Assembly: GCF_001598795.1 (NCBI RefSeq)
Contig: NZ_BCZP01000002.1
Location: 330,001 to 362,000, forward strand
DNA length: 32,000 nt
Origin: Delftia acidovorans NBRC 14950
GTDB lineage: Bacteria > Pseudomonadota > Gammaproteobacteria > Burkholderiales > Burkholderiaceae_C
Direction: 5' to 3'
Positions 1,434-18,375 of this stretch are shown here, one piece after another (the first letter of the stretch is position 1; every line of letters starts with the position of its first letter). Under the pieces are notes generated by a model. The model was not told the origin of the DNA. It did not search any database and saw only the letters and a program-made list of their open reading frames with translations. The position numbers and the translations under genes were made by a program.

Positions 1434-1442
1434 TGGGTGGCA

Positions 1443-1541: not shown

Positions 1542-1585
1542 GTGGGGGCGCGCCAGTTTTATGTCCAGCGCTATGAAGAACTGAT

Positions 1586-2344: not shown

Positions 2345-2356
2345 ATCTTTCCTTGA

Positions 2357-2380: not shown

Positions 2381-2431
2381 TCGGAGCGGGGCTGGTCTAA
2401 TTCGCGGCATCCAGAACTGGCATGAGCCAAG

Positions 2432-2512: not shown

Positions 2513-2513
2513 C

Positions 2514-2984: not shown

Positions 2985-3169
2985 GGGTGACTCCTGTTGG
3001 TGGGTGGAAAAACGGAAAGGCCAATGTAACGCCTAACAGTGGCAGCGCGCGCTGCCGGGCAGGAGCGCTCCCGGATTTTTGACATTTGCGCCATTCTTGC
3101 GTTCACGTCCTCACTCAGTTGTCGTCCATGGCTGACGCTATCCTCCGGAAAACTCCGATAATCGCGCCC

Positions 3170-3982
3170 ATGACTTTTTTGGCCATAGACATCGGCAACA
3201 CCCGCTTGAAATGGGCGATGTACGACGCGCATCGGCCTGGCGCCGCTTTGCTGGCGCACGGCGCGGAGTTCCTGGAGCACATCGAGCACTTGGCCGAAGG
3301 GCCGTGGAGCGACCTGCCCACGCCTACGCGCATGCTGGGCTGCGTGGTGGCCGGCGACACGGCGCGCCGGCGCGTGCACGACCAGATCGACATGATGCTG
3401 GGCTGGGATTTCGAGCCGCAGTGGGCCGTGCCCGGCGCGGCCGAGGCCGGAGTCACCAACGGCTACGACTTCCCCTCGCGCCTGGGGGCGGACCGCTGGG
3501 TGGCCATGATCGGCGCGCGCCAGCACATCCTGCAGCGCGGGCCAGAGCGGCCCCTGATCGTGGTCATGATCGGCACCGCCGTCACCGTGGATGCGCTGGA
3601 CCAGCACGGCCACTTCATGGGCGGTCTGATCCTGCCGGGGCACGGCATCATGCTGCGCGCCCTGGAAAGCGGCACGGCCGGCCTGCACGTGCCCACGGGT
3701 GCGGTCACGCCATTCCCCACCAACACCAGCGACGCGCTGACCAGTGGCGGCACCTACGCCATCGCCGGGGCCGTGGAGCGCATGTACCAGCATCTGTACA
3801 TGCACTGCAGCATGGAGCCCGCCTGCGTCATGGCCGGCGGTGCAGGCTGGAAGATGGTGCCCAGCATGACGCGGCCCTTCGAGCTGGTGGACAACCTCAT
3901 CTTCGAAGGCCTGCTGGTCATGGCGCAGCGCCGCTGGGGCGATGCCAGCGGCCTGCCTGCCGACGCGGTCAAAGCGGCCTGA
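3170..3982 (+). CDS. coaX: Type III pantothenate kinase
   Basis: Frame of ORF 3086..3982. ATG 3170 gives [16 protein letters not shown], the CoaX/Bvg-accessory-factor signature. GADRW and TSGG motifs occur later. Confidence 0.9.
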
Positions 3983-4132
3983 AGCCACTTCGATCGTGCG
4001 GCGCAGCATCGCGCCGTTATATCCGTTGCGTAACAGTTGATGACAGCGCTGATGCCGGGTGCGGGGGCGGCCGTGGACCCCACATCCGGAGCCTTTCGCG
4101 GGGGATGCGGCGACAGTGGATAATCCGCGGCA

Positions 4133-5860
4133 ATGTCTTCCACCAATCACGTCATGGAACCGATTGCCGGTGTCGAAGCCCCGATCAAGGGGCGGCTGGG
4201 CGAACGCCTGCTTTCCGCCGGCAAGCTGAACGAGCGCGATCTGCAAAACGCCCTGCAGGCGCAGCAGGAGCTGGGCGGCTACCTGGGCCAGGTGCTGGTC
4301 CAGCTGGGCGTGGTGGCGGAAGCCGACGTGGCCCAGGCGCTGTCCGAGCAGCTGCACATGCGCTGGCTGCGCGCGGAAGAGTTTCCCGATCTGCTGCCCG
4401 ATGTGCCGGGCCTGCTGGCCAGCTTTCTGGATGCGCAGTGCGTCTGCCCCATTTCGCTGCAGGACGGCGTGCTCGAAGTGGCCATGTCCGTGCCGCAGGA
4501 CCCCTTCATCACCAAGGCGCTGCGCCTTGCCACCGGGTTGCAGATCAAGCCCGTGCTGGCGCTGGAAGCCGATATCCGCAAGGCCCTGTCCGAAGCCGGC
4601 CAGGAACCCGAAGGCGAAGAAGGCCAGGACTGGGAGTCGGACGCCACGGGTGGCGACTTCGTCGAGCATCTGAAGGACCTGGCCAGCGAGGCGCCGGTCA
4701 TCCGCCTGGTCACGGGCATCATTTCCCGCGCCATCGAGCTGCACGCCTCCGACATCCACCTGGAGCCCTTCGAGGCTGGCCTGCAGGTGCGCTACCGTAT
4801 GGACGGCGTGATCCATGCGGCCGAACTCGTGCCGCCACGGCTGAGCGCAGCCGTGGGCTCGCGCGTCAAGCTGCTGGCCCATCTGGACATTGCCGAGCGG
4901 CGCCTGCCGCAGGACGGCCGCATCAAGACCCGCGCCAAGGGCCGCGAACTGGACCTGCGTGTCTCCACCGCACCCACGGTGCATGGCGAGAGCATCGTCA
5001 TGCGGGTGCTGGACCGCGCCAACGTGCGCCTGCGCCTGGAAAGCATGGGCTTCGAGGCCGATACGCTGGAGCGCTTCAACACCTTGCTGGCCAAGCCGCA
5101 CGGCATCGTGCTGGTCACTGGGCCCACGGGCTCGGGCAAGACCACCACGCTGTACGCGGCCCTGTCCAAGATCGACGCGGTTTCCAACAAGATCATCACC
5201 GTCGAGGACCCGGTCGAGTACCAGCTCGACGGCATCAACCAGATCCAGGTCCATCCGCAGATCGACCTCACCTTTGCCAACGCCCTGCGCTCCATCCTGC
5301 GCCAGGACCCGGACATCATCATGATCGGCGAAATGCGTGACGGAGAAACCGCGCAGATCGCCGTGCAGTCCGCACTGACAGGTCACCTGGTGCTGTCCAC
5401 GCTGCACACCAACACGGCCGCAGGCGCCGTCACCCGCATGCGAGACATGGGGGTGGAGAGCTACCTGATCACGTCCTCGGTCAACGGCGTGCTGGCCCAG
5501 CGCCTGGTGCGCACGCTGTGCTCGCACTGCAAGCAGCCCGACACGCTGCCGGCCGCCGCCGTCGAGGGCAGCGGGCTCAAGCGTTTTTTGCGCGAGGGCT
5601 CTCCCATCTACCGCGCCGTCGGCTGCGAGCATTGCCGGGGCACGGGCTACAAGGGCCGTACCGGCATCCATGAACTCATGGTCATCGACGAGCCGCTGCG
5701 CCGCGCCATCATCGAAGGCCAGGACGCCAACGCCCTGCATGCCATGGCGGCCAAGAGCGGCATGCTGAGCCTCTACGACGACGGCCTGCGCAAGGTGGCC
5801 TCGGGCGCCACCACGCTGGACGAAGTGCTGCGCGTGACCCAGGACCAGAGCGATGCCTGA
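4133..5860 (+). CDS. gspE: Type II secretion ATPase GspE with an MshEN-type N-terminal domain
   Basis: Walker A GPTGSGKTTTL, Asp/His boxes, tetracysteine CSHC...CEHC motif and a T2SSE_N-like N-terminus. 575 aa. Confidence 0.95.
   Translation: MSSTNHVMEPIAGVEAPIKGRLGERLLSAGKLNERDLQNALQAQQELGGYLGQVLVQLGVVAEADVAQALSEQLHMRWLRAEEFPDLLPDVPGLLASFLDAQCVCPISLQDGVLEVAMSVPQDPFITKALRLATGLQIKPVLALEADIRKALSEAGQEPEGEEGQDWESDATGGDFVEHLKDLASEAPVIRLVTGIISRAIELHASDIHLEPFEAGLQVRYRMDGVIHAAELVPPRLSAAVGSRVKLLAHLDIAERRLPQDGRIKTRAKGRELDLRVSTAPTVHGESIVMRVLDRANVRLRLESMGFEADTLERFNTLLAKPHGIVLVTGPTGSGKTTTLYAALSKIDAVSNKIITVEDPVEYQLDGINQIQVHPQIDLTFANALRSILRQDPDIIMIGEMRDGETAQIAVQSALTGHLVLSTLHTNTAAGAVTRMRDMGVESYLITSSVNGVLAQRLVRTLCSHCKQPDTLPAAAVEGSGLKRFLREGSPIYRAVGCEHCRGTGYKGRTGIHELMVIDEPLRRAIIEGQDANALHAMAAKSGMLSLYDDGLRKVASGATTLDEVLRVTQDQSDA
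4193..4351 (+). other. Tandem 24-residue MshEN-like c-di-GMP-binding motifs in GspE (residues 21-73)
   Basis: RLGERLLSAGKLNERDLQNALQAQ, then QELGG, then YLGQVLVQLGVVAEADVAQALSEQ, compared with RLGxx[LVI][LVI]xxG[LVI][LVI]xxxxLxxxLxxQ repeated twice with a 5-residue spacer. Confidence 0.6.
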
Positions 5861-7070
5861 TTACAGCTGGGAGGCCGTGGACAGCCGCGGCCAGATGGTC
5901 AAGGGCACTTTTTCCGCTGCGGCCGTGGCCGAGGTGGTGGTGCACCTGCGCAAGAGCCGGCTGTCGCCCATCAAGGTCGAGGAAGCCGTGGGCCTGGGCA
6001 ATGTGCCGCTTGCGGTGCGTGCGCTCAAGAAAGGCCGCATCAAGGCCGACGACATCCAGGGCATGACCACCGAGTTGGCCATCATGATGCGTGCCGGCCT
6101 GTCGCTGGACAACGCGCTCAAGGTCCTGGTGGAGATGAGCCACAAGGTGCAGATGCAGGCCATGCTCCAGTCCGTGCTCGACAGCGTCAAGGCCGGCATG
6201 CCGCTGAGCCAGGCACTGGGCAAGCACCACGACCTGTTCGGCGACTTCTATATCAACATGGTGCGCTCGGGCGAAGCCAGCGGCCAGATGTCGGGCGTGC
6301 TCAACCGGCTGGTGGAACACATGGCGCGCCAGCGTGCCCTGCGCGACAGCGTGGTCTCGGCCACCATCTATCCTGCCATCCTGCTGGGCGTGGCCGTGCT
6401 GTCCCTGGTGGCCATGCTGGGCTTCGTCGTGCCGCAGTTCGAGCAGCTCTTCAACGACATGGGTGACGCGCTGCCCCTTCCCACGCAATTCGTGATGGGG
6501 CTGGGCCATGCGTTTCGCAGCTACGGCTGGGCGGTGTTCATCGTGCTGGGCGCGCTGGGCTGGGTCTTAGCCCGCTGGGCCAAGAGTCCCAAGGGTCGTC
6601 AGACCTGGCAATCGTGGCTGCTGGGCCTGCCGGGCCTGGGTGGCGTGGTGCGCAAGTACCAGCTGACCCTGTTCAGCCGCTCGCTGGGCACGCTGCTGGG
6701 CAACGGCGTCACACTGCTGACCGCACTGCGCATTGCCAGCGACACGGTCTCCAACGTCGCCATTCGCGAGCGCCTGGAAAAAATGGGTCCCATGGTCAAG
6801 GAAGGCCATCGCATGGCCCATGCCGCCCAGAAAACCGGAGAATTCGAGCCCCTGGCCCTGAATCTGGTGCGGGTCGGCGAGGAAACCGGCCGGCTGGGCG
6901 ACATGATGCTGGAGCTGTCCAACATATTGAACCGCGAGGTCGAAAACGCGATCAAACGCCTCCTGACCATGCTGGAGCCGGCGCTGATCCTGGTCCTCGG
7001 TATCCTTATCGCCTCCATCATCGTGTCGATCCTGCTCGGAATCCTGTCCGTCAACGATCTGGCCGTCTGA
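5853..7070 (+). CDS. gspF: Type II secretion inner-membrane platform protein GspF
   Basis: 405 aa with duplicated T2SSF domains and 3 TM segments. The start overlaps the gspE stop by 8 nt. Confidence 0.95.
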   Translation: MPDYSWEAVDSRGQMVKGTFSAAAVAEVVVHLRKSRLSPIKVEEAVGLGNVPLAVRALKKGRIKADDIQGMTTELAIMMRAGLSLDNALKVLVEMSHKVQMQAMLQSVLDSVKAGMPLSQALGKHHDLFGDFYINMVRSGEASGQMSGVLNRLVEHMARQRALRDSVVSATIYPAILLGVAVLSLVAMLGFVVPQFEQLFNDMGDALPLPTQFVMGLGHAFRSYGWAVFIVLGALGWVLARWAKSPKGRQTWQSWLLGLPGLGGVVRKYQLTLFSRSLGTLLGNGVTLLTALRIASDTVSNVAIRERLEKMGPMVKEGHRMAHAAQKTGEFEPLALNLVRVGEETGRLGDMMLELSNILNREVENAIKRLLTMLEPALILVLGILIASIIVSILLGILSVNDLAV

Positions 7071-7102
7071 TGAATCTGAATTGTCTGAAAGGTATATAGA
7101 AG

Positions 7103-7543
7103 ATGATGCGCATGCAAAAGCAACTGTCCTCCCGCGCCCGCAAGCGTGGCTTCACGCTGATCGAACTGCTGGTCGTGCTGGCCATCCTGACCCTGCTGGC
7201 CGGCCTGGTTGGCCCCAAGGTGCTGAACCAGTTGGGTGGAGCAAAGACCAAGACGGCCGGCGTGCAGATCGCCGACATCGAAAAGGCGCTGGAGCTGTAC
7301 AAGCTCGACGTGGGCCGCTATCCCACCTCGCAGCAGGGCCTGGACGCGCTGGTCAAGCAGCCTGCCGGCGTTGCCGGCTGGGCGGGCCCCTACCTCAAGG
7401 GCGGCGTGCCCAATGATCCCTGGAACAACCCTTACCGCTACACCTACCCGGCTGCCAATGGCGACCTCGAGATCCTCTCGCTGGGTTCCGACGGCACACC
7501 CGGTGGCGAGGGCGAGGCCTCTGATATCCGCAACACCAAGTAA
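7103..7543 (+). CDS. gspG: Major pseudopilin GspG
   Basis: Prepilin motif KRG|FTLIELLVVLAIL, plus IEKALELYKLDVGRYPT, DPWNNPY and the C-terminal LGSDGTPGGEGEASDI Ca-site-like loop typical of GspG. Confidence 0.95.
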   Translation: MMRMQKQLSSRARKRGFTLIELLVVLAILTLLAGLVGPKVLNQLGGAKTKTAGVQIADIEKALELYKLDVGRYPTSQQGLDALVKQPAGVAGWAGPYLKGGVPNDPWNNPYRYTYPAANGDLEILSLGSDGTPGGEGEASDIRNTK

Positions 7544-7595
7544 GTTGCTGGTCTGACGCCGTAGTGCAACGCTGCCTCCGTGCCGGGAATATGTC

Positions 7596-8039
7596 TTGAA
7601 GCGCGCCCATGGTTTCACGCTGATCGAGTTGCTGGTGGTCTTCGGCATCCTTGCCGCGATCATCGGCATCGTGCCGCCCGCCATGGGCAAGTTGCGGGAT
7701 GCCGTCGCCTACCGCCAGACCGTGCAGGACGTCACGGCCCTGCTGCGCAAGGCTCGGCAGCAGGCGACGCTGCAGGGCATGCCCGTGGCGTTTGCCGTCA
7801 ATACAAATAGCCGCCAGTACGGCATTGCCGGGCAGGCGACTGCCAAATTGCCAGACACCCTGACAGTGCAATTGACCACGGCTGCGGGCACGGCCCTGGC
7901 CGATGGCAGCCAGACCATTGTGTTCCTGCCGGAAGGTGGCGCCACTGGGGGCAGCATCTCGCTGATTCGCGGCGAGGGCAGCGGTGTACGCCTTCGCGTG
8001 GACTGGCTGTCCGGCCTGGTCACCAAAGAGGGCTTGTGA
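7596..8039 (+). CDS. gspH: Minor pseudopilin, GspH-like
   Basis: TTG start. Prepilin motif AHG|FTLIELLVVFGIL. The size (147 aa) and the position after gspG fit GspH. Confidence 0.75.
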   Translation: MKRAHGFTLIELLVVFGILAAIIGIVPPAMGKLRDAVAYRQTVQDVTALLRKARQQATLQGMPVAFAVNTNSRQYGIAGQATAKLPDTLTVQLTTAAGTALADGSQTIVFLPEGGATGGSISLIRGEGSGVRLRVDWLSGLVTKEGL

Positions 8040-8443
8040 TGCGCCGCCACACTGCAGCCCGCGGCTTCGCGGGAGGCATGACCCTGCTGGAGTTACTGGT
8101 GGCATTGACCATCATGGCCATCTCCGTCGCTCTGATATATCGCGCTGTCGGTGGATCAGCCCGGGGCGTGACGCAGTTGGAGCGTAACCAGGGCGCTGCC
8201 ATGCTGGCAGAGTCGCTGATGGATGCTTTTTCCATGGTCGATCCAGGTGGAACCCAGGCCTCGGGGCAAGATGGGTTTTATACGTGGCAAGTTGCGTCAG
8301 CGCCTTTTCCTGTGGGTGATCTCCCAGAAACGGCCGTCCCGCTGCATGCCCTGCGCATCACGATTGTTTCTGAAGGGCGCAGCTGGGTGTTCGAGACCCT
8401 TCGTCCGCAGCGGCCACTGCAACAGGGTGAGGTGTCGCGGTGA
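8036..8443 (+). CDS. gspI: Minor pseudopilin, GspI-like
   Basis: GTG 8036 or ATG 8039 overlaps the gspH stop. Prepilin motif AGG|MTLLELLVALTIM. 135 aa. Confidence 0.7.
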   Translation: MMRRHTAARGFAGGMTLLELLVALTIMAISVALIYRAVGGSARGVTQLERNQGAAMLAESLMDAFSMVDPGGTQASGQDGFYTWQVASAPFPVGDLPETAVPLHALRITIVSEGRSWVFETLRPQRPLQQGEVSR

Positions 8444-9111
8444 CAAGACAGTTGCGACCCGCTCGGCCGTACCAGTCAGGCTTCACCCTGGTGGAGTTGC
8501 TGGTTGCGATGGTGCTGCTTTCCATGCTGACATTGGGGCTGGCCTCGGTGATGTCCACCGTATCGCAGACTCAGGAGAGAGTCGATGTTCGACTGGACCG
8601 CATGGATCATCAGCGCGTGGCGATTGGTTTTTTGCGGTCCACTCTCGGACAGATATCGGCGGTGAGGCGCCAAGCAGGGATGCGCAAACAAGGTGAGAGC
8701 GAGTTCTTCTTTCAAGGGGGACCGCGCGGCATGCAATGGCTGGGCATCATGCCGGCCCGGTTCGGGATGGGCGGACGTACGCATTTCAGGCTGGCTGTCG
8801 AGGGTGATGCCTTGACACTGTATTTCGCGCCGTGGAAGGCTGCGGATGTTGCACCTGATTGGGCGCAGGGGCAGTCGTATGTGATCGACCGGGGCGTCAC
8901 GGCTTTTGCCCTGAGTTACCAAAATGTCAAAGTAGGGGTCTCGCAGTGGTCGCCACAATGGGAAAATGAGAAGGAACTGCCCTCGGCGGTACAAATACAG
9001 CTTCAAGGCGGTTCTGGCAGTTGGCCCCTGATTGCCGTGGAGTTCCATACACCACCGGCGACGAATCGCTCTACCAGCGGCGGGGCTGTCTTTGGGGGCG
9101 GTCAGCGATGA
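8440..9111 (+). CDS. gspJ: Minor pseudopilin, GspJ-like
   Basis: GTGA overlap with gspI. Prepilin motif QSG|FTLVELLVAMVLL. 223 aa, the usual GspJ size and position. Confidence 0.75.
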   Translation: MTRQLRPARPYQSGFTLVELLVAMVLLSMLTLGLASVMSTVSQTQERVDVRLDRMDHQRVAIGFLRSTLGQISAVRRQAGMRKQGESEFFFQGGPRGMQWLGIMPARFGMGGRTHFRLAVEGDALTLYFAPWKAADVAPDWAQGQSYVIDRGVTAFALSYQNVKVGVSQWSPQWENEKELPSAVQIQLQGGSGSWPLIAVEFHTPPATNRSTSGGAVFGGGQR

Positions 9112-9881
9112 AGAGTCTGCAACGCTGGCCGATAGCGGCTTCGAACAAGGGGATGGCGCTGGTTCTTGTGCTGTGGATCGTTGCGGCGCTTGCCATCTTT
9201 GCTAACAGCTTGGGTGGCGTGGTTCGCAGGGAAGCGGCGGTGGCCAGCGTGGTGCGCAACTCCATCTATGGCCGAGGGGCTGGTGAAGCAGCCATTTTCC
9301 GGTTACTGCAGAAAATAGCAATCCAACCCTCAGACTTTGCGGAACGCCGAGTAGAGGGTGTCCCCTGGGGGGGGCAGATAATAGAGGTCGAAGTCGCCCC
9401 CTGGAGCGGGCTGATCAACATCAATGCTGCCCCGCAGAATCTGTTGGCGGTGGTGTTGAAAAAACTGGGTGTACCTCAGTCCGAAGCTTTGGCGCAGACG
9501 CTGGTTGAAACACGCCAGGTGGTCAGGGCAGGATCTGCGGGCGTGGCCTGGGAATCCCCCGAGGATTTGCTGCAGGTGCCAGGGATGACCTATGGCATCT
9601 ACGCACAAATGCGGCCCTTGATCGTTGCAGATACAGGCGGAAGATCCGGAGTCAACCTGAAGGCGGCCCCGGAACTGCTGCTGAGGCTGCTTGAGGGTGT
9701 GGAGGATGGGGCGGTTCGCGGAAATATCACCAGTACGCGTTATCGACTGACGGCCAGAGTACCCGTCGAGGGAGGGGGCGCCGTGCTGGTCATCCGAGAT
9801 GTGGACGTTTCAAGGGCACGCCAGAATTCACTGCCCTGGGTGGTGCTGTCCGCTTCCCAGGTGTGGGCTGGGCGTATGTGA
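9108..9881 (+). CDS. gspK: Minor pseudopilin, GspK-like
   Basis: ATGA overlap with gspJ. NKG|MALVLVLWIVAAL lacks Glu+5, as is typical of GspK. Two helix-hairpin-helix-like segments are present (ININAAPQNLLAVVL and VNLKAAPELLLRLL). Confidence 0.75.
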   Translation: MKSLQRWPIAASNKGMALVLVLWIVAALAIFANSLGGVVRREAAVASVVRNSIYGRGAGEAAIFRLLQKIAIQPSDFAERRVEGVPWGGQIIEVEVAPWSGLININAAPQNLLAVVLKKLGVPQSEALAQTLVETRQVVRAGSAGVAWESPEDLLQVPGMTYGIYAQMRPLIVADTGGRSGVNLKAAPELLLRLLEGVEDGAVRGNITSTRYRLTARVPVEGGGAVLVIRDVDVSRARQNSLPWVVLSASQVWAGRM

Positions 9882-9985
9882 TGTACTCAATCGGATGTGG
9901 CGCCAGAAGTTAGGAGAGCGCTGGACCGCTGCTAGCCGGAAGGAAAGAAAGTGAAAGTAATACTATTGAATGGTTGTGGCGTCGT

Positions 9986-11104
9986 ATGACATTGATGACT
10001 TCTGATGCCAAACTGTTCGGTTTGGACTTGCGGGGGCTTTCATCGGAGCTTCGTGAGGCATGGCAGGCACTTCAGCGCCTACCATTGCTCAGCCGGCTGC
10101 TTCCGGCATCGATGGTGCAAGTCTGGGTTGGTGCCCAGGCGCCTATCGTCGCTAGGGCGCAGGGCGTCAACATCGAGTGGCTCGATGGATCGACCACTCT
10201 CTTGGCGCAAGCACAGTACACGGCGGTTCTGTTGGAGGACGATCAGGTTCTGCAGCGGGTTCTGAAGCTTCCGCAAATGGGACCGACTGCAATGAGGGGC
10301 GCCATTGAGCTGGACGTGCAGACGATGACGCCCTTTGCTCCACAGGACACGCTTTGGGCCTATGCGGTCCGGCCCGCTGCGCGGGCTGGTGCGCTGCTGC
10401 ATGTTGAAGTGGTACTTGCCTCGCGTGCGCAAGTTGAACAGGTGCTGCGCCAGCGGGCTTCAAGCATGCCGGAGGGTGTCCACCCTGAGGTTTGGGCCCC
10501 CACCAGTGGCAGCCCTGTCGTGTTGCCGGGTTTTGGCGAAACATCGCGCTGGCGTGGCGAAGCAAAGCGGGGCGGCTGGATCGGGTTGGGCGTGATCGGG
10601 GTGCTCGTCATGGCCCTGGCCCTGGCGGTCACTCCTACCGCGCAACTGAGATTGCGTGCGGTCGATGCGGGAGAACAATTTTCCCGGCTCAGCAAATCCA
10701 CCTCCGAGGTTGTGGCACAGCGCCAGGCCCTGGTTGAAGGAGTGCAAGATCTGGGCAAACTGCAGGAGCGTGTGCAGCAGCAAATCAATCACCTGCAGGT
10801 GCTGGCGACGCTGACAAAGGTATTGCCCGATGACACAGCAGCTCAGCGCGTGGTGTTCAGAGGCAGCAAACTTACGGTCCAAGGGCTTACCAACAATGCG
10901 TCTAACGTAGTGGCATTGCTGGCTAAGACTCCTGGCTTTCAGGAAGTACGACTGCCAACGGCCGTGACGCGTGTCCCCGGATCTGGCAAGGAGAGCTTTA
11001 CGCTGGAGGCGAACATCGATCCGCAGGTCCTGGGCATGCTCGCCAAGGCAGAAGAGGACAAGCCGCCAGCGGAAGGCGGGGCGATTGCCAAGGAGGTCCA
11101 ATGA
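9986..11104 (+). CDS. gspL: GspL-like bitopic assembly-platform protein
   Basis: Frame of ORF 9974..11104, with possible starts at TTG 9974, ATG 9986 or ATG 9995. A ~200-aa cytoplasmic part contains LKLPQMGPTAMRGAIELDVQTMTPF (GspL-like). A single TM (WIGLGVIGVLVMALALAV) and a periplasmic coiled/ferredoxin-like tail follow. The position between gspK and gspM fits GspL. Confidence 0.65.
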   Translation: MTLMTSDAKLFGLDLRGLSSELREAWQALQRLPLLSRLLPASMVQVWVGAQAPIVARAQGVNIEWLDGSTTLLAQAQYTAVLLEDDQVLQRVLKLPQMGPTAMRGAIELDVQTMTPFAPQDTLWAYAVRPAARAGALLHVEVVLASRAQVEQVLRQRASSMPEGVHPEVWAPTSGSPVVLPGFGETSRWRGEAKRGGWIGLGVIGVLVMALALAVTPTAQLRLRAVDAGEQFSRLSKSTSEVVAQRQALVEGVQDLGKLQERVQQQINHLQVLATLTKVLPDDTAAQRVVFRGSKLTVQGLTNNASNVVALLAKTPGFQEVRLPTAVTRVPGSGKESFTLEANIDPQVLGMLAKAEEDKPPAEGGAIAKEVQ

Positions 11105-11688
11105 CAGCAGGCGCGCAGAAGCTGACCTTGCGTCAATGGGCCCTTCTTGGTGGGATCGCCGTCCTCTTGGTTGTTCCACTGTTACTCCTGGGAAGCTGGA
11201 TTTATTCCAAGCACCAATGGGCCCAGGAACAACTGGGCACACTGGAGCCGCGCTACGCGAGGCTTGCCGGCATGCAGGGGCAGACGGAGGAAATTCAGGA
11301 AGCGCTGAAGAGGATCGAGTCCACCAAGGCTCTGCACATCTACCCGGCAGAGCAGGACAGCACTCAGACTGGCAATGCACTTCAGCAACGCTTGCGGACC
11401 GTCTTGGACAAAGCGGGACTCTCCGTGGTCAGCAGCCAAGTGCGTCCTACCTCTGAATCAGGTGAATCTGATCAGGGTCCTTATGAACGCATTTCCGTGT
11501 CGATGACGGCAGAGGGCGAATGGTCTGCCATCCAATTGGCCATCATGTCATTACCCGAAGTTACGCCCACCGTGTGGCTCGATGATCTGCAACTGAATCT
11601 GCTGGGCAATCTGGAAAGCAACAACCTCAGAGTGCCGCCCAAGATCAGCGCGCAGTTTGTTTTCAGCATTCTTCGGAGCAAGCCGTGA
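11101..11688 (+). CDS. gspM: GspM-like protein
   Basis: ATGA overlap with gspL. 195 aa with one N-terminal TM (WALLGGIAVLLVVPLLLLGSWI). The size, topology and position match GspM. I did not recognise strong sequence motifs. Confidence 0.6.
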   Translation: MTAGAQKLTLRQWALLGGIAVLLVVPLLLLGSWIYSKHQWAQEQLGTLEPRYARLAGMQGQTEEIQEALKRIESTKALHIYPAEQDSTQTGNALQQRLRTVLDKAGLSVVSSQVRPTSESGESDQGPYERISVSMTAEGEWSAIQLAIMSLPEVTPTVWLDDLQLNLLGNLESNNLRVPPKISAQFVFSILRSKP

Positions 11689-12362
11689 ACCAGCGCATTC
11701 TTTGGACCGCAGGGTTGTCCGTGCCCGTGGCGCTGTTGGGGGGAGCACTTGCGTGGATGTGGTTGACACCGCAGATGCAGCTCAAAAACGCTGGCTGGGA
11801 GGCTCCGCATCCGATCAAGGCAGATATTCAATCGCTTGTGCCTGCCGAGCAGGCACTTTCTGGTAACAAGCCGCAGGGCGAGATGCAGCTGCTGGAGATG
11901 CACGAACGGCCGCTGTTCGTGATGAACCGCAGGCCCCCACCGCCTCCCCCACCGCCAGAGCCTGAGAAAAAAGTCGAAGAAATCCCTGATGCCTGGGTGC
12001 AGGCGCGTGTCACAGGCATTTTTGAGGGGCCTGTCACCGGGATCATTGTCCATATCGATGGCAAGGAGCGACGGCTCATGCTCAACCAGAGTTTTGCGGG
12101 CTGGAAGCTGCAAGGCATAGAGCAGCGCAGCATCCTTTTGGAGCGCGGCGGTCAGATACGTTCGTTGCAATTGGCGAAGGCCGTCCTCGACAAAGGCCCT
12201 AGCATTCCGGCCAGCATGCGCGTGCCTTCCGTCGGCGCGGGGCCTTCGCCTGGCAGCAACTCTGGCGAATCGGCTTCTGAGCGCGCAGAAGGGGAGGCAG
12301 GCGCCCCCCCGGCTCGGCCAGCACCGCGTGCCGTATTCGGCGGAACCTCGAGCCGCAAATGA
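11685..12362 (+). CDS. GspC/XpsN-like secretin-coupling protein (no PDZ domain)
   Basis: GTGA overlap with gspM and ATGA overlap with gspD. It has an N-terminal TM, a poly-Pro linker RRPPPPPPPPPEPEKK, then a short beta-rich segment (VTGIFEGPVTGIIVHIDGKERRLMLNQSFAGWKLQGIEQRSILLERGG) resembling the HR/PilP-like secretin-binding fold. Its position equals that of XpsN. Confidence 0.5.
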   Translation: MNQRILWTAGLSVPVALLGGALAWMWLTPQMQLKNAGWEAPHPIKADIQSLVPAEQALSGNKPQGEMQLLEMHERPLFVMNRRPPPPPPPPEPEKKVEEIPDAWVQARVTGIFEGPVTGIIVHIDGKERRLMLNQSFAGWKLQGIEQRSILLERGGQIRSLQLAKAVLDKGPSIPASMRVPSVGAGPSPGSNSGESASERAEGEAGAPPARPAPRAVFGGTSSRK

Positions 12363-14854
12363 AACAGTTTCTTAAGAAAACCATGAAATTGCAAAACAGA
12401 CATTTTCATACGGCGCTGTCGCTGGCGGTTTGCCAGCTGTTGGTTGCCTGTGCACAGCCCCAGCAGAACAACTATGTCAGCCATTTCGGCGCGGGTCAGC
12501 AATCCGAAGGCTATGTGTTCAATGACGAAGATCAAAGCGTGGGCAAGAAGGCCTCCGAAAAATCATCGACGCCCGAGCCACGCCTCCTTGAGGGGACTGG
12601 TAAATTGCTGGCCGATGCCAAGCCGTCCAAGGCCTTGAAAGATGCGCAGGTCAAGCTCAGTTTCGAGGATGCGCCTCTGGCCCAGGTCGTGCGGACAGTG
12701 CTGGGGGATATTCTTGCGCTTGACTATGTGCTGCACCCGCCGATTACTGGAACAGTCACCCTGAGCACGCAGCAGAATGTCTCGGGGGACAACGCGTTGT
12801 ATCTGCTGGAGGCGGCCTTGCAGGCCAATGGCATGGGTATAGCGCGTGATGCTCGTGGCACTTACCATGTCGGCCGTCTTGATGCGCTCAAGGGCTTGGG
12901 GGCTGCAGTACGGCAGGCGTCGCCCACTCAGCCACTGGCGCCAGGATACGGAGCCATTGTTGTGCCGCTGAACTATATAGGTGCCAATGAAATGGCGGCC
13001 ATCTTGCGTCCCATGGTGCCGGGTGATGCCATTCTTCGTGTTGACAACGTGCGCAACATGCTGGTGATGGCCGGATCCCGTGCACAGGCGGAAGGTTGGC
13101 TTGAGATGGTTCGCACCTTCGACGTAAATGTTCTGGAAGGCATGTCGGTAGGCGTTTTTCCTCTCAAATATGTCTCTATCCAGGAAGTCAGTGCCGCTTT
13201 GCAACTGATGAGCGGGGGCGGTGCCCCTGGGGCTGGGGCTCCTGGCGCGGGTGTGGCTCCTGCTGCAACTACGGCAAGGCCAGGGGGGGCGGCGACTGCA
13301 GCACCTGGCGCTTCCATGGCGGCTCTGGGCGAAGGCAATCCGCTATTTGGTGCCCTGCGCATCATTCCCATTGAGCGGCTCAACAGTATCTTGGTCATCA
13401 CGCCTCGCGCCTCCTATCTGGATGAGGCGCGCCGCTGGATTGCCAAGCTCGACCAGGCTGGCACGGGTGGGGCGCAGCCGCAACTCAATATCTACAAAGT
13501 GCAAAACGGCAATGCTCGGCACCTGGCAAGTGTTCTGTCGGGTATTTTTGGAGGGTCTGCCGGAGGTATGTCTACCAACAGCGGCGTGGCGCCAGGACTG
13601 GGTACATCCACGACGAGCATGGGGGGGAGCAGCTTCGGAAGCGGCGGCTTGGGTAGCAGCAGCTTTGGCAGTGGTGGTTTTGGCGGCGGTGGTTTGAGTA
13701 GTGGCGGCTTTGGTGGCGGCAGTTTTGGCAGCGGTGGCTTTGGTGGTGGTGGACTCGGCGGGGCGGGGCGTGGCTTCGGGCAGACCGGAAGCACCGGCCA
13801 GTTGGGCGGAGTGGCAGGGGCAAGCGCCGCAGCCACCAGTCTGGGCAGCGTTCGTGTCATGGCGGATGAACTCAACAACTCCGTGCTGGTCTGGGGTACG
13901 CCCGCAGAGTACGAGCGTATAGAGGCGGCGCTCAAGAAACTGGATTTGCCTCCCACGCAAGTGCTGATAGAGGCAAGCATCGTGGAGGTGACGCTGAACG
14001 ACACCTTGCGGTACGGTTTGCAATGGGCCTTCAGTGGTGATGTCGGCAACAAGGGTTATAGCGGTACGGGCAGTGTGCTGACCGGGGATGCTCCCGGTTC
14101 AACAGGATTCGCAGAAACTGGCGGACTGGCGGCAACTCTTGGCTCAGGCTTCAACTACACGGTCAAGAACTCGCTGGGCAATATCAAGGCAGTGCTCACT
14201 GCTCTTTCGGGCAAGACCAATGTCAAGGTGGTGGCCAGCCCTACGGTGATGGTGCTGGATAACCATACGGCGGGCATCATGGTGGGCACACAGCAGCCCT
14301 ATTCGGCGGGCTCCACCACATCGACAACGACGGGAGTTACTACCAACATTCAGTACAAGGATACCGGGGTCATCCTGCAAGTCACTCCTTCGGTCAATTC
14401 CGGCAATATCGTCACCATGAATGTCGATCAGACTGTCTCGGCGCTGGGCTCGAATGTAACTGTAGGGGGGTCCAGCAATCCCTCCTTCTCGCAGCGGCAG
14501 ATCTCCAGCAGGGTGGCAGTGCGCTCTGGAGAGTCAATTGTCATGGGCGGACTGATCCAGGAGCGCTCTACCAACACGCGCAGTGGCATCCCCATACTGC
14601 ATGATCTTCCGGTGGTTGGAAATCTCTTCGGGCAGACATCGAACGTGGGGGATCGAACAGAGCTGCTTGTCGTCATCACGCCAAGAGTCGTTCGCACGGA
14701 CATTGATGTGCGGGTGGTCAGCGACGATTTGCGTGAGCAAATGCGTTCTTTGACGCCCTTGCTGAAGTCACCCAATACAGTTCCTGCTGCTGACGACGGT
14801 GCAAGGGGCAAGCCGCTGGTGGAGGTGGGGCCCCTGACGCCTGAGCAGCGCTAG
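12359..14854 (+). CDS. gspD: Secretin GspD, predicted lipoprotein (liposecretin), with low-complexity insertions
   Basis: 831 aa. Lipobox LLVA|C with Cys31 (codon 12449-12451). N0-N3-like repeats are present (LSFEDAPLAQVVRTVL..., VPLNYIGANEMAAIL..., FPLKYVSIQEV..., IYKVQNGNARHLASVL...). The secretin core reads VLIEASIVEVTLNDTLRYGLQW ... GIPILHDLPVVGNLFG ... ELLVVITPRVV. Confidence 0.93.
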   Translation: MKQFLKKTMKLQNRHFHTALSLAVCQLLVACAQPQQNNYVSHFGAGQQSEGYVFNDEDQSVGKKASEKSSTPEPRLLEGTGKLLADAKPSKALKDAQVKLSFEDAPLAQVVRTVLGDILALDYVLHPPITGTVTLSTQQNVSGDNALYLLEAALQANGMGIARDARGTYHVGRLDALKGLGAAVRQASPTQPLAPGYGAIVVPLNYIGANEMAAILRPMVPGDAILRVDNVRNMLVMAGSRAQAEGWLEMVRTFDVNVLEGMSVGVFPLKYVSIQEVSAALQLMSGGGAPGAGAPGAGVAPAATTARPGGAATAAPGASMAALGEGNPLFGALRIIPIERLNSILVITPRASYLDEARRWIAKLDQAGTGGAQPQLNIYKVQNGNARHLASVLSGIFGGSAGGMSTNSGVAPGLGTSTTSMGGSSFGSGGLGSSSFGSGGFGGGGLSSGGFGGGSFGSGGFGGGGLGGAGRGFGQTGSTGQLGGVAGASAAATSLGSVRVMADELNNSVLVWGTPAEYERIEAALKKLDLPPTQVLIEASIVEVTLNDTLRYGLQWAFSGDVGNKGYSGTGSVLTGDAPGSTGFAETGGLAATLGSGFNYTVKNSLGNIKAVLTALSGKTNVKVVASPTVMVLDNHTAGIMVGTQQPYSAGSTTSTTTGVTTNIQYKDTGVILQVTPSVNSGNIVTMNVDQTVSALGSNVTVGGSSNPSFSQRQISSRVAVRSGESIVMGGLIQERSTNTRSGIPILHDLPVVGNLFGQTSNVGDRTELLVVITPRVVRTDIDVRVVSDDLREQMRSLTPLLKSPNTVPAADDGARGKPLVEVGPLTPEQR
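13547..13843 (+). repeat. Gly/Ser/Phe-rich low-complexity insertion in the N3-like domain of GspD (about residues 397-495)
   Basis: FGGSAGGMSTNSG...GGSSFGSGGLGSSSFGSGGFGGGGLSSGGFGGGSFGSGGFGGGGLGGAGRGFGQTGSTGQLGG, with 8 FG dipeptides. The DNA shows imperfect tandem ggc/ggt/ttt-ggc repeats. Confidence 0.9.
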
Positions 14855-14868
14855 CAGCTCAAGTTCCC

Positions 14869-14894
14869 GGAACATTCTTCTTCAAAGATGTTCC
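14869..14894 (+). promoter_or_regulatory. Hairpin/dyad ggaacat-N12-atgttcc just after gspD
   Basis: 7-bp inverted repeat in an AT-rich 68-bp spacer, followed by aaataccttttt. It could be a weak attenuator or an operator. Function is not assignable from sequence. Confidence 0.25.
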
Positions 14895-14922
14895 AAATAC
14901 CTTTTTGGACCAAGATACACAT

Positions 14923-15369
14923 ATGAACACGTTGACAAAGATCCCTGCATTGGCAGGCATGCGCCGGATTTTGTGGGGTGCGGGTGTGGCTGGCGCCTTG
15001 GTGCTGGCCGGCTGTGCCACCACAACAGGGGGCGAGCAGAGCAAGGCTCAGAAACCCGAGGAGGCCGTAACGCAGCGATCGAACGAGTTCTGGAAGGTTC
15101 GCATGGCGGGGGATGTCGGTCAGGCCTATGCTTTCACCACTCCAGGCTATCGTGCGGTCAACAGCCTGGAGAAGTACCGGCTGAACCACGGCGCCGTCCC
15201 GTCCCTCAGTGGTGGCTCGATCGCCTGGGTCAAGTGCGAGGACAAGCGCTGCGAGGTTCGCAAGAACTTCACCACCAGCAGCCCGGTCATGGGCAATACA
15301 CAGATTCCTATCTCTATCAGCGAGGTGTGGACGCAGGAAGACGGCCAGTGGTGGCTGTTCCTGGAATAA
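14923..15369 (+). CDS. Small lipoprotein of unknown function (NTF2/DUF4878-like appearance)
   Basis: ATG 14923 in the frame of ORF 14905..15369. Signal plus lipobox LVLAG|C. The mature part contains EFWKVRMAGDVGQAYAF and the C-terminal EDGQWWLFLE, reminiscent of small NTF2-like lipoproteins. Confidence 0.75.
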   Translation: MNTLTKIPALAGMRRILWGAGVAGALVLAGCATTTGGEQSKAQKPEEAVTQRSNEFWKVRMAGDVGQAYAFTTPGYRAVNSLEKYRLNHGAVPSLSGGSIAWVKCEDKRCEVRKNFTTSSPVMGNTQIPISISEVWTQEDGQWWLFLE

Positions 15370-15675
15370 GGCGGCTATGGATCTGGCGCGCCGTGCGGGC
15401 TGGCGTCAGGCCAAAGGTTGGTAGCGTTCTCCGGGCATGCCTCATGCTCGGTATGGACGAAGCCAAAAGTCGGGCAGGGTAGGCGCTGGAAGCAATGTTT
15501 GCCATAATGCGCCGTCCCTGATCTGGTGCTCGCTAGGGAAGTGTTGTTTTTTTTCAAAACAAGGCTTGGGCGCCTCCGAAAAGCGGTATGGGGGCATGAC
15601 CGGCTGTGCTACGATTCCCTGGCGATCAATCGTGGTGGTTGCAACTACCTTATCTTTTTACTGGAGATAGTTCTT

Positions 15676-17184
15676 ATGAAGAAAAATGTTCTGGCCCTGA
15701 GCATTGCTGCCATGGTTGGTGGCCTGGGCTTCGCTGGCGCTGCGTCCGCACAATCGTTCCAAGTGAACGAAAGCGGCACAGGCCACATCCTGGTGGTGCC
15801 CTACTACACCGCCCAGAACGGCAACATGTCCGTGTTCCACCTGACCAACACCGACACCATCCGTGGTAAGGCTGTGAAGGTGCGTTTCCGCGGTGCTTCG
15901 AACTCCGACGACGTGCTTGACTTCCAAGTCTTCATGTCGCCTGGTGACGTGTGGACCGCTGCTGTGACGGCTGACGCCGCTGGCAAGGCCCAGCTGGTGA
16001 CTGCAGACAACACCTGCACGCTGCCCGCTATCGCCAAGAACACGCCTGTTCCGTTCGTGACCGATCGTCTGGCTCGTCAAGGCTGGACTGACGCGGACAA
16101 GGCTGCTCAGACTCGTGAAGGCTACGTTGAAATCCTCAACATGGCCGACATCTCGAATCTGAACCCTGCTGCTTCGTCCTTGTACAAGGCCACGAAGCAC
16201 GCGAACGGCGTTGCTCCTTGCACCTCCTCGGTCCTGCAAGACACGCTGCTGGGCTACCCCGCCATGACTTCGCAGAACGAACTGTCCGCGCCCACCGCGA
16301 CGCTGACCGGTTCGTGGTATGTGATCAACGTGGCTCAGTCCACGACGTTCTCTGGCGCCGCTCCCGCTCTGGTGGGCAATGCTCCTACACGCGTCGTGTT
16401 CTCGCCCCAAGTTGAAGGCGAAACCACGTTCAAGACGTCTGACCCGCTGATGGTTGCTGGCACTATCAAGGCTCAGCACTATGACGTGCCTGACCTGTCG
16501 ACGCCTTACTTCGCCAGCCAATCGCTGACGAGCCAGACCGACGCCGACACCAATGCTACGAACCTGACGAATGCTCTGGGTCGTAACACCATCATGAACC
16601 AGTACGCAACGGATCTCAGCATCTCTGCTAAGACCGACTGGGTGTTCTCGATGCCTACCCGCCGCTACACTGTGGCTGCTAACTATGCATCGACGGCCAC
16701 GAACTATGCTGGTCAGCTGAATGTGTCTGCCACTGGCACGCCTACGACTGCTGAACTGAACGCTTACACGTACATCAACAGCGCTGTGACCGGCAACATC
16801 TTCTCGACAGGTGCCAAGGTTTCCGCCAATGACCAAGGTCAGCTGTGCGTGACGGCTTCCAAGCAAGAGTTCTACGACCGTGAAGAAAACGTGCAGTCCA
16901 GCGGCGCGATCTTCTCGCCCGGCACGACCAAGACGGCCAAGCTGTGCGGTGAAGTCAGCGTGCTGTCCTTCACGTCCGATGCTTCGGCTCTGGGCGCTGC
17001 TGTGGCACGTCAGACCGTGGCTGCTCCCTACACTAACGGTTGGGGCACCATCGGCTTCGGTACGGACCGCGCTCCCGTCCTGGGCGCTGCGTTCCTGAAG
17101 CTGACCAACCCCCAAGCCGTTCCTGGCACCGTGGGTACGTACGGCATCACCTGGCCCCACGCTTACGGCTCTGCCGCTCAGTAA
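15676..17184 (+). CDS. Abundant-type secreted/surface protein of unknown family; candidate T2SS cargo
   Basis: ATG 15676 is preceded by GGAGA. Sec signal MKKNVLALSIAAMVGGLGFAGAASA|QSF. The protein is rich in Ala/Thr/Ser/Asn/Gly and has 4 Cys. Codon usage shifts to GCT/GGT/CGT/TTC/AAC, unlike its neighbours. I recognised no domain by eye. Confidence 0.85.
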   Translation: MKKNVLALSIAAMVGGLGFAGAASAQSFQVNESGTGHILVVPYYTAQNGNMSVFHLTNTDTIRGKAVKVRFRGASNSDDVLDFQVFMSPGDVWTAAVTADAAGKAQLVTADNTCTLPAIAKNTPVPFVTDRLARQGWTDADKAAQTREGYVEILNMADISNLNPAASSLYKATKHANGVAPCTSSVLQDTLLGYPAMTSQNELSAPTATLTGSWYVINVAQSTTFSGAAPALVGNAPTRVVFSPQVEGETTFKTSDPLMVAGTIKAQHYDVPDLSTPYFASQSLTSQTDADTNATNLTNALGRNTIMNQYATDLSISAKTDWVFSMPTRRYTVAANYASTATNYAGQLNVSATGTPTTAELNAYTYINSAVTGNIFSTGAKVSANDQGQLCVTASKQEFYDREENVQSSGAIFSPGTTKTAKLCGEVSVLSFTSDASALGAAVARQTVAAPYTNGWGTIGFGTDRAPVLGAAFLKLTNPQAVPGTVGTYGITWPHAYGSAAQ

Positions 17185-17218
17185 TCGGGCACTTTCACGC
17201 GCAAGCGTGATCTAGAGA

Positions 17219-17252
17219 AGGCGGGAGGAAACTCCCGCCTTTTTTGTTTTTT
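17219..17252 (+). terminator. Strong Rho-independent terminator after the cargo gene
   Basis: aggcgggag-gaaa-ctcccgcct (9-bp GC-rich stem, GAAA loop) followed by tttttgtttttt. Confidence 0.9.
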
Positions 17253-17264
17253 CGGAAAGGACTT

Positions 17265-18200
17265 ATGACTGCTTCCATCCAACGACTGACGATGGCCTCG
17301 CTGATGTTGACTGCCATGATGGCAGGCCAGTGGGCCTGGGCTGAAGCCAAGTTGCCCGACGCTGCGGATGCCCGCAAGCCCGCTGCTGTTCAGACGCTGG
17401 CACAAGGCCAGAATATAGTGATCACGGATCTGGACGTGCAGGCGGATGCGCAACGCATCCCCCCAGATGTGCGCCCCTTGATTCTGGCGCGCTCACAGAA
17501 TGTGGGGCAGATGGCGTCTGATCTCTATGTCTTCCGCAACATGGCCAAGATGGCGCAGCAGCTGGGAATGGAGCGCGATCCCCGGGTGGCTGCTGCCCTG
17601 CAGGTTGCGCGTGACCGGGTGCTTGCCAACGCCTGGATGGATGCGCTGGATGAAAAGAACATGCCCAGCCTGGAGGCCGCAGAAAAGCAGGCGCGCAGCA
17701 TTTACCAAGCACAGCCAGATCGCTTCAAGGTTGGTGAAGAAGTGCGTGCGCGCCACATTCTGATTTCAGGCAAGGATGCCGAGGCGCGTGCCAAGGCAGA
17801 ACAAGTGTTGGCGCAGCTCAAGTCAGGTGCAGACTTTGCAACGTTGGCCAGGGAAGTGTCGGCTGACAAGGGCAGTGCAGCGCGTGGTGGTGACCTGGGC
17901 TTTTTCGGCAGGGATCGCATGGCTCCGGAGTTCGAGAAGGCCGCTTTCGCGCTGCAAAAGCCCGGTGATCTCTCCACTGTCGTGGAGACCCAGTTTGGTC
18001 AGCACATCATCCAACTGGAAGCACGTCGTCCCGCCGGCATCAAGCCTTTCGAGGAAGTGCGCGAAGGTATGGTCAAAGAAATCCGCTCCATCGCTGCCAA
18101 GGACGTGCGCTCTGCAACGGCCGAGCAACTCCGTGCGGATGTCAAGGTTGACAATGCTGCGGTTGAAGCCTTCGCTTCAAAGAACGAACCCAAGCCCTGA
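17265..18200 (+). CDS. Periplasmic parvulin-type peptidyl-prolyl cis-trans isomerase (PpiC/SurA/PrsA-like)
   Basis: ATG 17265. Signal ...AGQWAWA|EAK. The rotamase domain reads VRARHILISGKD...GADFATLAREVSADKGSAARGGDLGFFGRDRMAPEFEKAAFAL...TQFGQHIIQLE. Confidence 0.88.
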   Translation: MTASIQRLTMASLMLTAMMAGQWAWAEAKLPDAADARKPAAVQTLAQGQNIVITDLDVQADAQRIPPDVRPLILARSQNVGQMASDLYVFRNMAKMAQQLGMERDPRVAAALQVARDRVLANAWMDALDEKNMPSLEAAEKQARSIYQAQPDRFKVGEEVRARHILISGKDAEARAKAEQVLAQLKSGADFATLAREVSADKGSAARGGDLGFFGRDRMAPEFEKAAFALQKPGDLSTVVETQFGQHIIQLEARRPAGIKPFEEVREGMVKEIRSIAAKDVRSATAEQLRADVKVDNAAVEAFASKNEPKP

Positions 18201-18375
18201 GCATTGAGCCGCGCGTGTGCTATCGAGCCATGTGTTGCCTTGTTGTTGCAAGCATTTGAAATGCTTTGTCTTCATCGTAGGCACGTGACGCTGTGATGCG
18301 CGAAAATGCCAGGTTTGGCATGAACTGAAGTGCCGCCGCCGTCTCTGGCGCGCGGCACTTGTCGCATAACAACGC

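Follow-up and report, generated by a model that had tools for sequence, protein, structure and literature searches.

NpdA and an adjoining Xps-type type II secretion system in Delftia acidovorans: a probable S-layer biogenesis locus linked to an O-polysaccharide pathway

A 32,000-nt stretch of the genome of Delftia acidovorans NBRC 14950 (contig NZ_BCZP01000002.1, positions 330,001 to 362,000; hereafter the window, in whose own numbering all coordinates are given) carries fourteen genes on the + strand at 4133–18200, namely eleven gsp genes of a type II secretion system (T2SS), a small lipoprotein gene, a gene for a 502-amino acid (aa) exported protein and a parvulin gene. We consider it probable that the window carries the S-layer biogenesis locus of NpdA, in which an Xps-type T2SS is presumed to be dedicated to this S-layer protein (SLP) and is accompanied by two conserved accessory genes and by the O-polysaccharide pathway that probably anchors the layer. 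The original prediction, made from the sequence alone, had described a self-contained secretion unit ending at 18200 and built like the Hxc/LapA system of Pseudomonas; however, the conserved unit extends beyond this point to wzm/wzt and the genes of an O-polysaccharide cluster, so that its closest analogue is the sps/vapA locus of Aeromonas and not Hxc/LapA. The npdA–gsp locus itself is already known and published (PMC10765051), and the main value of our analysis is the correct annotation of this region as a Delftia S-layer/nanopod biogenesis locus instead of a new single-cargo secreton. The lipoprotein, the parvulin and the wzm/wzt exporter stand out as three candidate factors for assembly or anchoring of the S-layer; neither the main text of PMC10765051 nor term searches of its supplement turned up a treatment of the lipoprotein fold, the parvulin, the wzm/wzt linkage, the within-species mosaic, the MshEN motif or the promoter.

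Assignment of the exported protein to NpdA

The gene npdA, encoding the S-layer/nanopod protein and putative T2SS cargo of 502 aa, occupies 15676–17184 on the + strand. The protein has thousands of relatives, and its best match was a 'cell surface protein' of D. tsuruhatensis with 98% identity. Against NpdA of P. citrulli (WP_011797163; query sequence as printed in the supplement of PMC10765051), it could be aligned over the full length with 52% identity (E = 3e-146), while the identities were 66% to the D. acidovorans protein P0005, 64–66% to other Delftia alleles and 64% at the amino acid level to the allele of the D. tsuruhatensis type strain. Judging from these alignments, we assign the 502-aa protein as an ortholog of NpdA. 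In Delftia sp. Cs1-4, gene disruption, immunogold labelling and proteomics have established NpdA as both the S-layer protein and the sheath of vesicle-filled nanopods, and disruption of npdA removes the S-layer as well as the nanopods (PMC3110197). Likewise, NpdA of P. citrulli forms an S-layer, as demonstrated by deletion, proteomics and cryo-EM, and is treated by Gajbhiye et al. as a separate SLP family (PMC10765051).

No Pfam or NCBIfam domain, and hence no enzyme domain, was found in NpdA. The AlphaFold2 model of the protein (mean predicted local distance difference test, pLDDT, 85; predicted template modelling score, pTM, 0.86) was confident and largely beta. In Foldseek, no PDB entry matched the model at E ≤ 1e-3, and the matches obtained were weak and partial, to jelly-roll or galectin-like folds; a sequence search against solved structures gave a chance match alone (E = 0.64). 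The lack of a PDB match is consistent with NpdA being an SLP family of its own. Four cysteines are invariant, which suggests the presence of disulfides.

NpdA bears a Sec signal peptide, MKKNVLALSIAAMVGGLGFAGAASA↓Q, with cleavage at ...AASA↓QS. This signal peptide (15676–15750; MKKNVLALSIAAM.GGLGFAGAASA; 25 residues) belongs to the best-conserved segments of NpdA when genera are compared, a degree of conservation that is unusual for signal peptides. Constraint at the nucleotide level was considered and rejected, as the synonymous-codon conservation in the signal peptide was 0.72 compared to 0.69–0.79 in other conserved blocks; since synonymous sites were not more conserved there, it appears to be the protein sequence that is constrained.

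Conservation of the locus across genera

Sixteen window proteins were searched by tblastn against 82 loci from more than 15 genera, of which 80 were collected by an NpdA-alignment scan with one genome per species and two were added via the location of the D. acidovorans NpdA homolog. The scan patterns were built from betaproteobacterial sequences, and the gammaproteobacterial exceptions Thiothrix and Nitrosococcus, discussed below, lay outside this re-examination. The order gspE-F-G-H-I-J-K-L-M-C-D/lipoprotein/npdA/parvulin/wzm/wzt was collinear in the 82 loci wherever the contig reached (gspD in 80, the lipoprotein gene in 81, the parvulin gene in 77, wzm in 77 and wzt in 76), and the parvulin gene, where present, was always located directly 3' of npdA. 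The genera bearing this block included Delftia, Acidovorax, Paracidovorax, Comamonas, Diaphorobacter, Simplicispira and Giesbergeria as well as Ottowia, Ramlibacter, Rhizobacter, Ideonella, Azoarcus and Thauera. Three metagenomic contigs reached via distant lipoprotein homologs (23–36% identity) had the same order, and the two metagenomic contigs that extend through npdA encode NpdA-like products 574 and 622 aa long (36% identity to the window protein, E = 1e-83 and 2e-90). Linkage of the cargo gene to the gsp genes persists down to 35% cargo identity.

Co-inheritance of the cargo gene with the gsp cluster, which had been put forward as a check on the prediction, was observed in 82 of 82 loci as far as the contigs reach. 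It supports the proposed dedication of the T2SS to one adjacent cargo, and the same conclusion has been drawn in the literature (PMC10765051). Gajbhiye et al. (2023) reported that a 12-gene gsp cluster precedes npdA in 62 species of Betaproteobacteria and 49 of Gammaproteobacteria, D. tsuruhatensis CM13 being one of them (their Fig. S5B), and likened this arrangement to Aeromonas vapA and Pseudoalteromonas tunicata slr4 (PMC10765051). P. citrulli has a pair of gsp clusters, namely gsp1, which lies next to npdA, and a second one designated gsp2 (PMC10765051).

The linked O-polysaccharide cluster

Downstream of the parvulin gene, wzm (18376–19176, +, ABC2_membrane match) overlaps the start of wzt (19173–20453, +), whose product has ABC_tran and a Wzt_C glycan-cap-binding domain. 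This pair begins within 1.2 kb of npdA and is unusually conserved, with about 70% amino acid identity across genera. The O-polysaccharide biosynthesis genes at 20508–30453 lie on both strands and were identified by Pfam, the same set being present in D. acidovorans; they encode two methyltransferases, two acyltransferases, a product of a GT2-like open reading frame (ORF), a WecA-type GT4 initiating transferase and, on the − strand, a 1326-aa methyltransferase-GT2-GT1 protein, after which argB follows. Together, wzm/wzt and the downstream genes make up a complete ABC-transporter-dependent O-polysaccharide pathway.

According to Shetty et al., who cite Engelhardt, reassembly of the D. acidovorans SLP required lipopolysaccharide (LPS) (PMC3110197). 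Taking together this requirement, the linkage to wzm/wzt and the layout of the Aeromonas locus, we infer the O-polysaccharide as the anchor: by synteny and analogy, the linked O-polysaccharide probably holds the S-layer to the cell.

Exchange of a variable block within Delftia

Comparison with the D. tsuruhatensis type strain revealed sharp changes in nucleotide identity along the locus. At 5500–7500 (gspE to gspG) the identity was about 97%, dropped within gspH, and was only 65–76% at 8000–18300 (gspI to the parvulin gene), with the exception of a 90% island at 15500–16000 covering the promoter, leader and signal peptide of npdA; from about 18500, wzm onward, it returned to 97–98%. The diverged stretch is foreign-looking in its composition, with GC content at third codon positions (GC3) of about 0.65 and an effective number of codons (Nc) of 48–56, compared to GC3 of 0.83–0.89 and Nc of 30–37 in the flanks. 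The sequences of another strain pair were identical up to and including gspL, with divergence setting in at gspC and extending to wzt. Because the breakpoints differ between strain pairs, the locus is a mosaic, whose common variable core consists of gspC, gspD, the lipoprotein gene, npdA and the parvulin gene. At least five divergent classes of NpdA alleles occur in Delftia, with 45–98% amino acid identity to the window NpdA.

Of all the results, the joint replacement of T2SS parts and cargo as a block within a species offers the most interesting lead. Going by the sequence comparison, such swapping may reflect recognition parts of the T2SS that are co-adapted to the cargo. A bolder version would regard gspC to the parvulin gene (in some pairs from gspI) as an exchangeable 'S-layer type cassette', in which each NpdA allele travels with co-adapted GspC, GspD, tip pseudopilins, lipoprotein and parvulin, the joint swap being forced by T2SS–cargo specificity, with the lipoprotein acting as a new type of assembly factor for the S-layer or the secretin and export being gated by cyclic di-GMP (c-di-GMP) via the MshEN motif of GspE described below. 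We hold this combined proposal only tentatively and think it rather doubtful as a whole. Substrate recognition by T2SSs is a long-standing open question, for which the within-species joint replacement of T2SS recognition parts and the S-layer allele would offer a natural experiment.

Expression signals of npdA

The codon usage of npdA is heavily biased, with an Nc of 31.8 compared to 48–56 for gspI to gspD at similar GC content, in agreement with the expression-optimised codons that had been predicted for the 502-aa gene. Such a bias fits a very abundant protein. The control region upstream of npdA (15542–15675, +) is conserved across genera and contains an extended −10 element, TGCTACGAT, at 15606–15614; 78 of the 79 loci compared share the pattern TGnTAnnAT. 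Farther upstream, at a fixed distance of about 60 nt from this element, 48 of the 79 loci have an inverted repeat TGTTG-N7-9-CAAC, which may be the site of a regulator; here it is present in a degenerate form, TGTTG-N8-CAAAA, at 15542–15559. A search of the entire window for TGTTG-N7-9-CAAMA returned the npdA site only, and a single match is not above chance. The leader of approximately 55 nt is nearly invariant and has a GGAG Shine-Dalgarno sequence.

A hairpin followed by a U-run in the leader (15634–15649) was considered as an attenuator or stabilizing stem but is not supported, as RNAalifold found no consensus pairs, the z-score of the single-sequence fold was −0.26, and the 71% of paired positions was about the same when the partner was slid by one column. 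The gene is followed by an intrinsic terminator at 17213–17246 (+) with a stem of 15 pairs, including 7 G-C pairs, and a T-run. This terminator separates npdA from the parvulin gene, so that the two are not simply co-transcribed.

The type II secretion genes

The gene order E-F-G-H-I-J-K-L-M-(C/N)-D with eleven gsp genes, as originally predicted, was confirmed by Pfam, NCBIfam and reading of the sequence, all genes lying on the + strand. The ATPase gene gspE (4133–5860; T2SSE, E = 6.5e-143; TIGR02533, 634 bits against a cutoff of 630) is followed by gspF for the inner-membrane platform (5853–7070; T2SSF in two stretches, E = 3.5e-55) and gspG for the major pseudopilin (7103–7543; T2SSG, E = 5e-40; N_methyl; G↓FTLIELLV). 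The minor pseudopilins are encoded by gspH (7596–8039; GspH match), gspI (8036–8443; N_methyl and weak GspI/XpsI matches), gspJ (8440–9111; T2SSJ match) and gspK (9108–9881; weak T2SSK/GspK matches). The product of gspL (9986–11104) has a PilN-type periplasmic domain (PF05137, E = 9e-11), and its ATG start at 9986 agrees with the 372-aa ortholog annotated in D. acidovorans. An XpsM-type GspM is encoded by gspM (11101–11688; T2SSM_b, E = 2e-21; XpsM equivalog NF040576, 84 bits against a cutoff of 60 bits), and the secretin by gspD (12359–14854; TIGR02517, 449 bits against a cutoff of 351; Secretin, Secretin_N and N0 domains). Between them, a GspC/XpsN-like protein of 225 aa (11685–12362) was called from its position, its presence in 72 of the 82 loci and a T2SSC match below the cutoff (E = 0.005); it has a transmembrane segment at the N-terminus and a poly-Pro linker, and Pfam detected no PDZ domain in it. 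The core set of the T2SS is therefore complete, with E, F, G, H, J, M and D above the cutoffs and with I, K and C weak but positioned as expected.

The predicted chaining of gspH to gspD by 4-nt overlaps, interrupted only between gspK and gspL, could be read directly in the sequence (H/I GTGA, I/J GTGA, J/K ATGA, L/M ATGA, M/C GTGA and C/D ATGA), and the K–L gap is 92–104 nt according to the gspL start chosen. In addition, gspE and gspF overlap by 8 nt, and intervals of 32 and 52 nt set gspG and gspH off from adjacent genes. Intact cleavage motifs had been claimed for all five pseudopilins; this holds for GspG, H, I and J, which carry G↓(F/M)TL(I/L/V)ELLV, but not for GspK, whose motif G↓MALVLVL has neither the Thr nor Glu5. 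GspK usually lacks Glu5. A four-copy DNA repeat family covers the N-terminal segments of GspG, H, I and J, and apart from this family and low-complexity repeats in GspD, no repeats were found in the window.

Among all assigned window genes, Pfam gave no match to Peptidase_A24 (GspO) or to the PulS/AspS pilotin families, which bears out the stated absence of gspO and of a GspS-type pilotin from the window. The prepilin peptidase is commonly encoded elsewhere in the genome and shared with type IV pili.

Residues 21–73 of GspE (window 4193–4351) contain a tandem 24-residue MshEN c-di-GMP motif, detected by a regular expression following the published motif definition (PMC5013675), with RLGERLLSAGKLNERDLQNALQAQ at residues 21–44 and YLGQVLVQLGVVAEADVAQALSEQ at residues 50–73 separated by the 5-residue spacer QELGG. 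Deviations from the motif were K31, Y50 replacing Arg, and V66 replacing the first Leu of LxxxLxxQ, and NF053729 matched GspE with 55 bits against a cutoff of 38 bits. Because of this motif, c-di-GMP may modulate export through GspE and so couple S-layer export to biofilm signalling. GspE also has a CxxC...CxxC tetracysteine motif.

GspD has a lipobox-like LVAC near its N-terminus (...LLVAC↓AQ, window 12440–12451), which also occurs in some orthologs (Simplicispira, Ottowia), whereas the Comamonas N-termini are without Cys, although their extraction was imprecise. A liposecretin as a family-wide trait was rejected, as many orthologous GspDs are without the Cys in the N-termini recovered. Residues 405–487 (window 13571–13819) form an insert of 83 residues that is rich in Gly and Ser and in which FG dipeptides recur (GSSFGSGGFGGGG...), and a second stretch at residues 285–320 is rich in Ala, Gly and Pro; the size of the insert is uneven across orthologs, with 26 to 64 G+S per 100 residues.

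The lipoprotein and the parvulin

Downstream of gspD, the expected lipoprotein, 502-aa Sec-signal protein and periplasmic parvulin were all recognized, by the lipobox LAGC, the AASA↓QS site and a Rotamase_3 domain, respectively. The small lipoprotein of outer-membrane type (14923–15369, +) belongs to a family with a conserved lipobox and invariant C105, C110, W136 and W143, and had no Pfam or NCBIfam family match. Its AlphaFold2 model has a core with pLDDT above 90 that forms an NTF2-like alpha+beta cone, and the best PDB matches of the model in Foldseek were NTF2-like domains (about E = 4e-5). All family members whose genomic context was checked are located between gspD and npdA. A known pilotin (PulS/OutS or AspS) was rejected as its identity on account of the missing family match and the NTF2-like fold, although a pilotin-like role is still conceivable. 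The lipoprotein might act as a helper of the secretin, as a holdase for NpdA or as an anchor; as a best guess, it would sit in the inner leaflet of the outer membrane and there assist the secretin or keep hold of NpdA prior to export.

The periplasmic parvulin-type peptidyl-prolyl isomerase (17265–18200, +; Rotamase_3, E = 3e-30) has a signal peptide ending in ...AWA↓EA. Its start had been placed at TTG 17244, which overlaps the terminator occupying 17213–17246; the start is therefore probably ATG 17265, a position that fits the 310-aa parvulin ortholog of D. acidovorans.

Surroundings of the locus

The GC content along the window is 59–68%. On one side the locus is flanked at 105–3982 by housekeeping genes, comprising a TctC-family receptor gene, an Amdase-like gene, a gene for a BON-LysM protein (2514–2984, − strand) and coaX, and on the other side by argB at 30564–31454. 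There was no tRNA gene, integrase gene or insertion sequence element at the borders of the locus, and no Rfam family matched across the whole window. Two long ORFs on the − strand, of 500 aa opposite npdA (15658–17160) and of 947 aa opposite coaX–gspE (2897–5740), are taken to be artefacts of GC-rich, codon-biased sequence and not genes.

Discussion

The observations above can be assembled into a pathway for the NpdA S-layer. In this pathway, npdA would be transcribed alone from the extended −10 promoter, with transcription ending at the strong terminator, and pre-NpdA would cross the inner membrane via Sec. NpdA would fold in the periplasm, probably with the help of the adjacent parvulin, and the Xps-type T2SS encoded by gspE to gspD, for which the prepilin peptidase would be supplied from elsewhere in the genome, would move it through the secretin. 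At the surface, NpdA would bind LPS bearing the O-polysaccharide made and exported by the wzm/wzt cluster and crystallize there.

In this pathway, dependence of NpdA export on the T2SS is the step that we infer from gene arrangement, and several points weigh against it or against parts of the pathway. Our literature search found no experiment showing that NpdA export requires the adjoining T2SS, and the only reported gspG mutant of P. citrulli removed both gsp clusters; mutational proof of the T2SS dependence was named as future work by Gajbhiye et al. (PMC10765051). In addition, Thiothrix and Nitrosococcus have npdA without gspE to gspK beside it (PMC10765051), indicating that the npdA–gsp linkage is not absolute. 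The evidence for GspC is likewise weak (E = 0.005), gene position is the sole basis for the roles given to the lipoprotein and the parvulin, and the variable block within Delftia may equally mark where flanking homology permits crossover.

If the gsp cluster were a general secretion system, npdA would simply be a strongly expressed gene nearby, and its product one substrate among many. T2SSs usually serve multiple substrates, the content of the window excludes no other cargos, and some Gammaproteobacteria hold npdA without a full adjacent gsp set, all of which would be accommodated by a general system. However, adjacency and order are kept in the 82 loci throughout many genera and at NpdA identities as low as 35%, a second and separate gsp cluster is present in P. 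citrulli, and precedents for an S-layer T2SS exist in Aeromonas and P. tunicata. Moreover, gspI to gspD are atypical in composition (GC3 of about 0.65 compared to about 0.88 in the flanks) and are swapped with the npdA alleles. We therefore judge a general system unlikely.

A different route of NpdA to the surface, by vesicle budding or another outer-membrane translocon, would leave the T2SS to export the parvulin or a factor that modifies the layer. NpdA is closely tied to outer-membrane vesicles and nanopods, and its gene is transcriptionally insulated from its neighbours, which would both agree with such a route. On the other hand, the conserved block encodes no alternative exporter, the signal peptide of the parvulin is an ordinary periplasmic one, and a Sec signal along with an adjacent T2SS is the pattern experimentally shown for the Aeromonas S-layer protein, as cited in PMC10765051; this route therefore seems very improbable to us.

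An Hxc/LapA-like system, conditionally expressed and releasing a soluble enzyme-type cargo into the medium, can be given hardly any credence: the single adjacent Sec-signal cargo would suit it and LVAC of GspD recalls the liposecretin HxcQ, but the cargo is assigned as an NpdA ortholog without an enzyme domain and with a predicted beta-rich, lattice-type fold, the lipobox is missing from many orthologous GspDs, the gene order is Xps-like, and the codon bias indicates constitutive, very high expression.

Comparison with known systems

The presumed NpdA-dedicated T2SS thus remains our preferred reading, and can be placed among known systems as follows. The order E to N followed by D is that of Xanthomonas Xps and not that of Hxc. 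The likeness to Xps comprises the order E-F-G-H-I-J-K-L-M-N-D, an XpsM-type GspM (84 bits compared to 60) and a GspC equivalent without a PDZ domain; in contrast, Xps serves as a general secreton, exporting enzymes that degrade plant cell walls, and the XpsI model matched here below its cutoff (42 bits compared to 150 bits).

The Hxc system of P. aeruginosa, which had been chosen as the model in the original prediction, is a specialised T2SS that exists in addition to another one, serves a single adjacent cargo, relies on a shared prepilin peptidase and has the liposecretin HxcQ. Its cargo LapA is an alkaline phosphatase of phosphate starvation that is released into the medium and not a lattice protein. 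Its gene order is different from that of the window. It also differs from the npdA-linked systems in that their secretins have no conserved lipobox and that a LapA-type alkaline phosphatase is absent as cargo, its place being taken by a protein with no Pfam or NCBIfam domain.

Slr4 of P. tunicata and other marine Gammaproteobacteria resembles NpdA in that an SLP with a Sec/SPI signal is encoded directly downstream of a conserved T2SS operon, which its authors inferred to be dedicated (PMC7821379). Slr4 belongs to another SLP family, mainly marine, and was modelled by its authors on RsaA (PMC7821379); for NpdA, no entry of the PDB matched the model at E ≤ 1e-3. The same protein family and the same upstream gsp cluster as in the window are found in the npdA–gsp1 loci of Delftia sp. 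Cs1-4 and P. citrulli AAC00-1 (PMC3110197, PMC10765051), of which the text of PMC10765051, in the parts consulted, names only gsp genes and one 'hypothetical X'.

The closest analogue is the sps/vapA locus of Aeromonas (A. salmonicida and A. hydrophila), where an S-layer-specific T2SS adjoins the SLP gene (Noonan and Trust 1995, as cited in PMC10765051), the module is likewise joined to wzm/wzt and O-antigen genes, and the cargo is also a protein of about 50 kDa with a Sec signal. In A. salmonicida, spsE to spsL, hypothetical genes and vapA are enclosed between wzm and wzt inside the ABC-2 O-antigen cluster wb(salmo), which also holds spsD/apsE (PMC4483657). The components are similar in size: Aeromonas SpsE, F, G, H, I, J, K and L have 552, 395, 143, 131, 132, 235, 288 and 371 aa, compared to 575, 405, 146, 147, 135, 223, 257 and 372 aa for GspE to GspL of the window. 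The two loci differ in the placement of the S-layer module, which lies between wzm and wzt in Aeromonas and upstream of both in Delftia.

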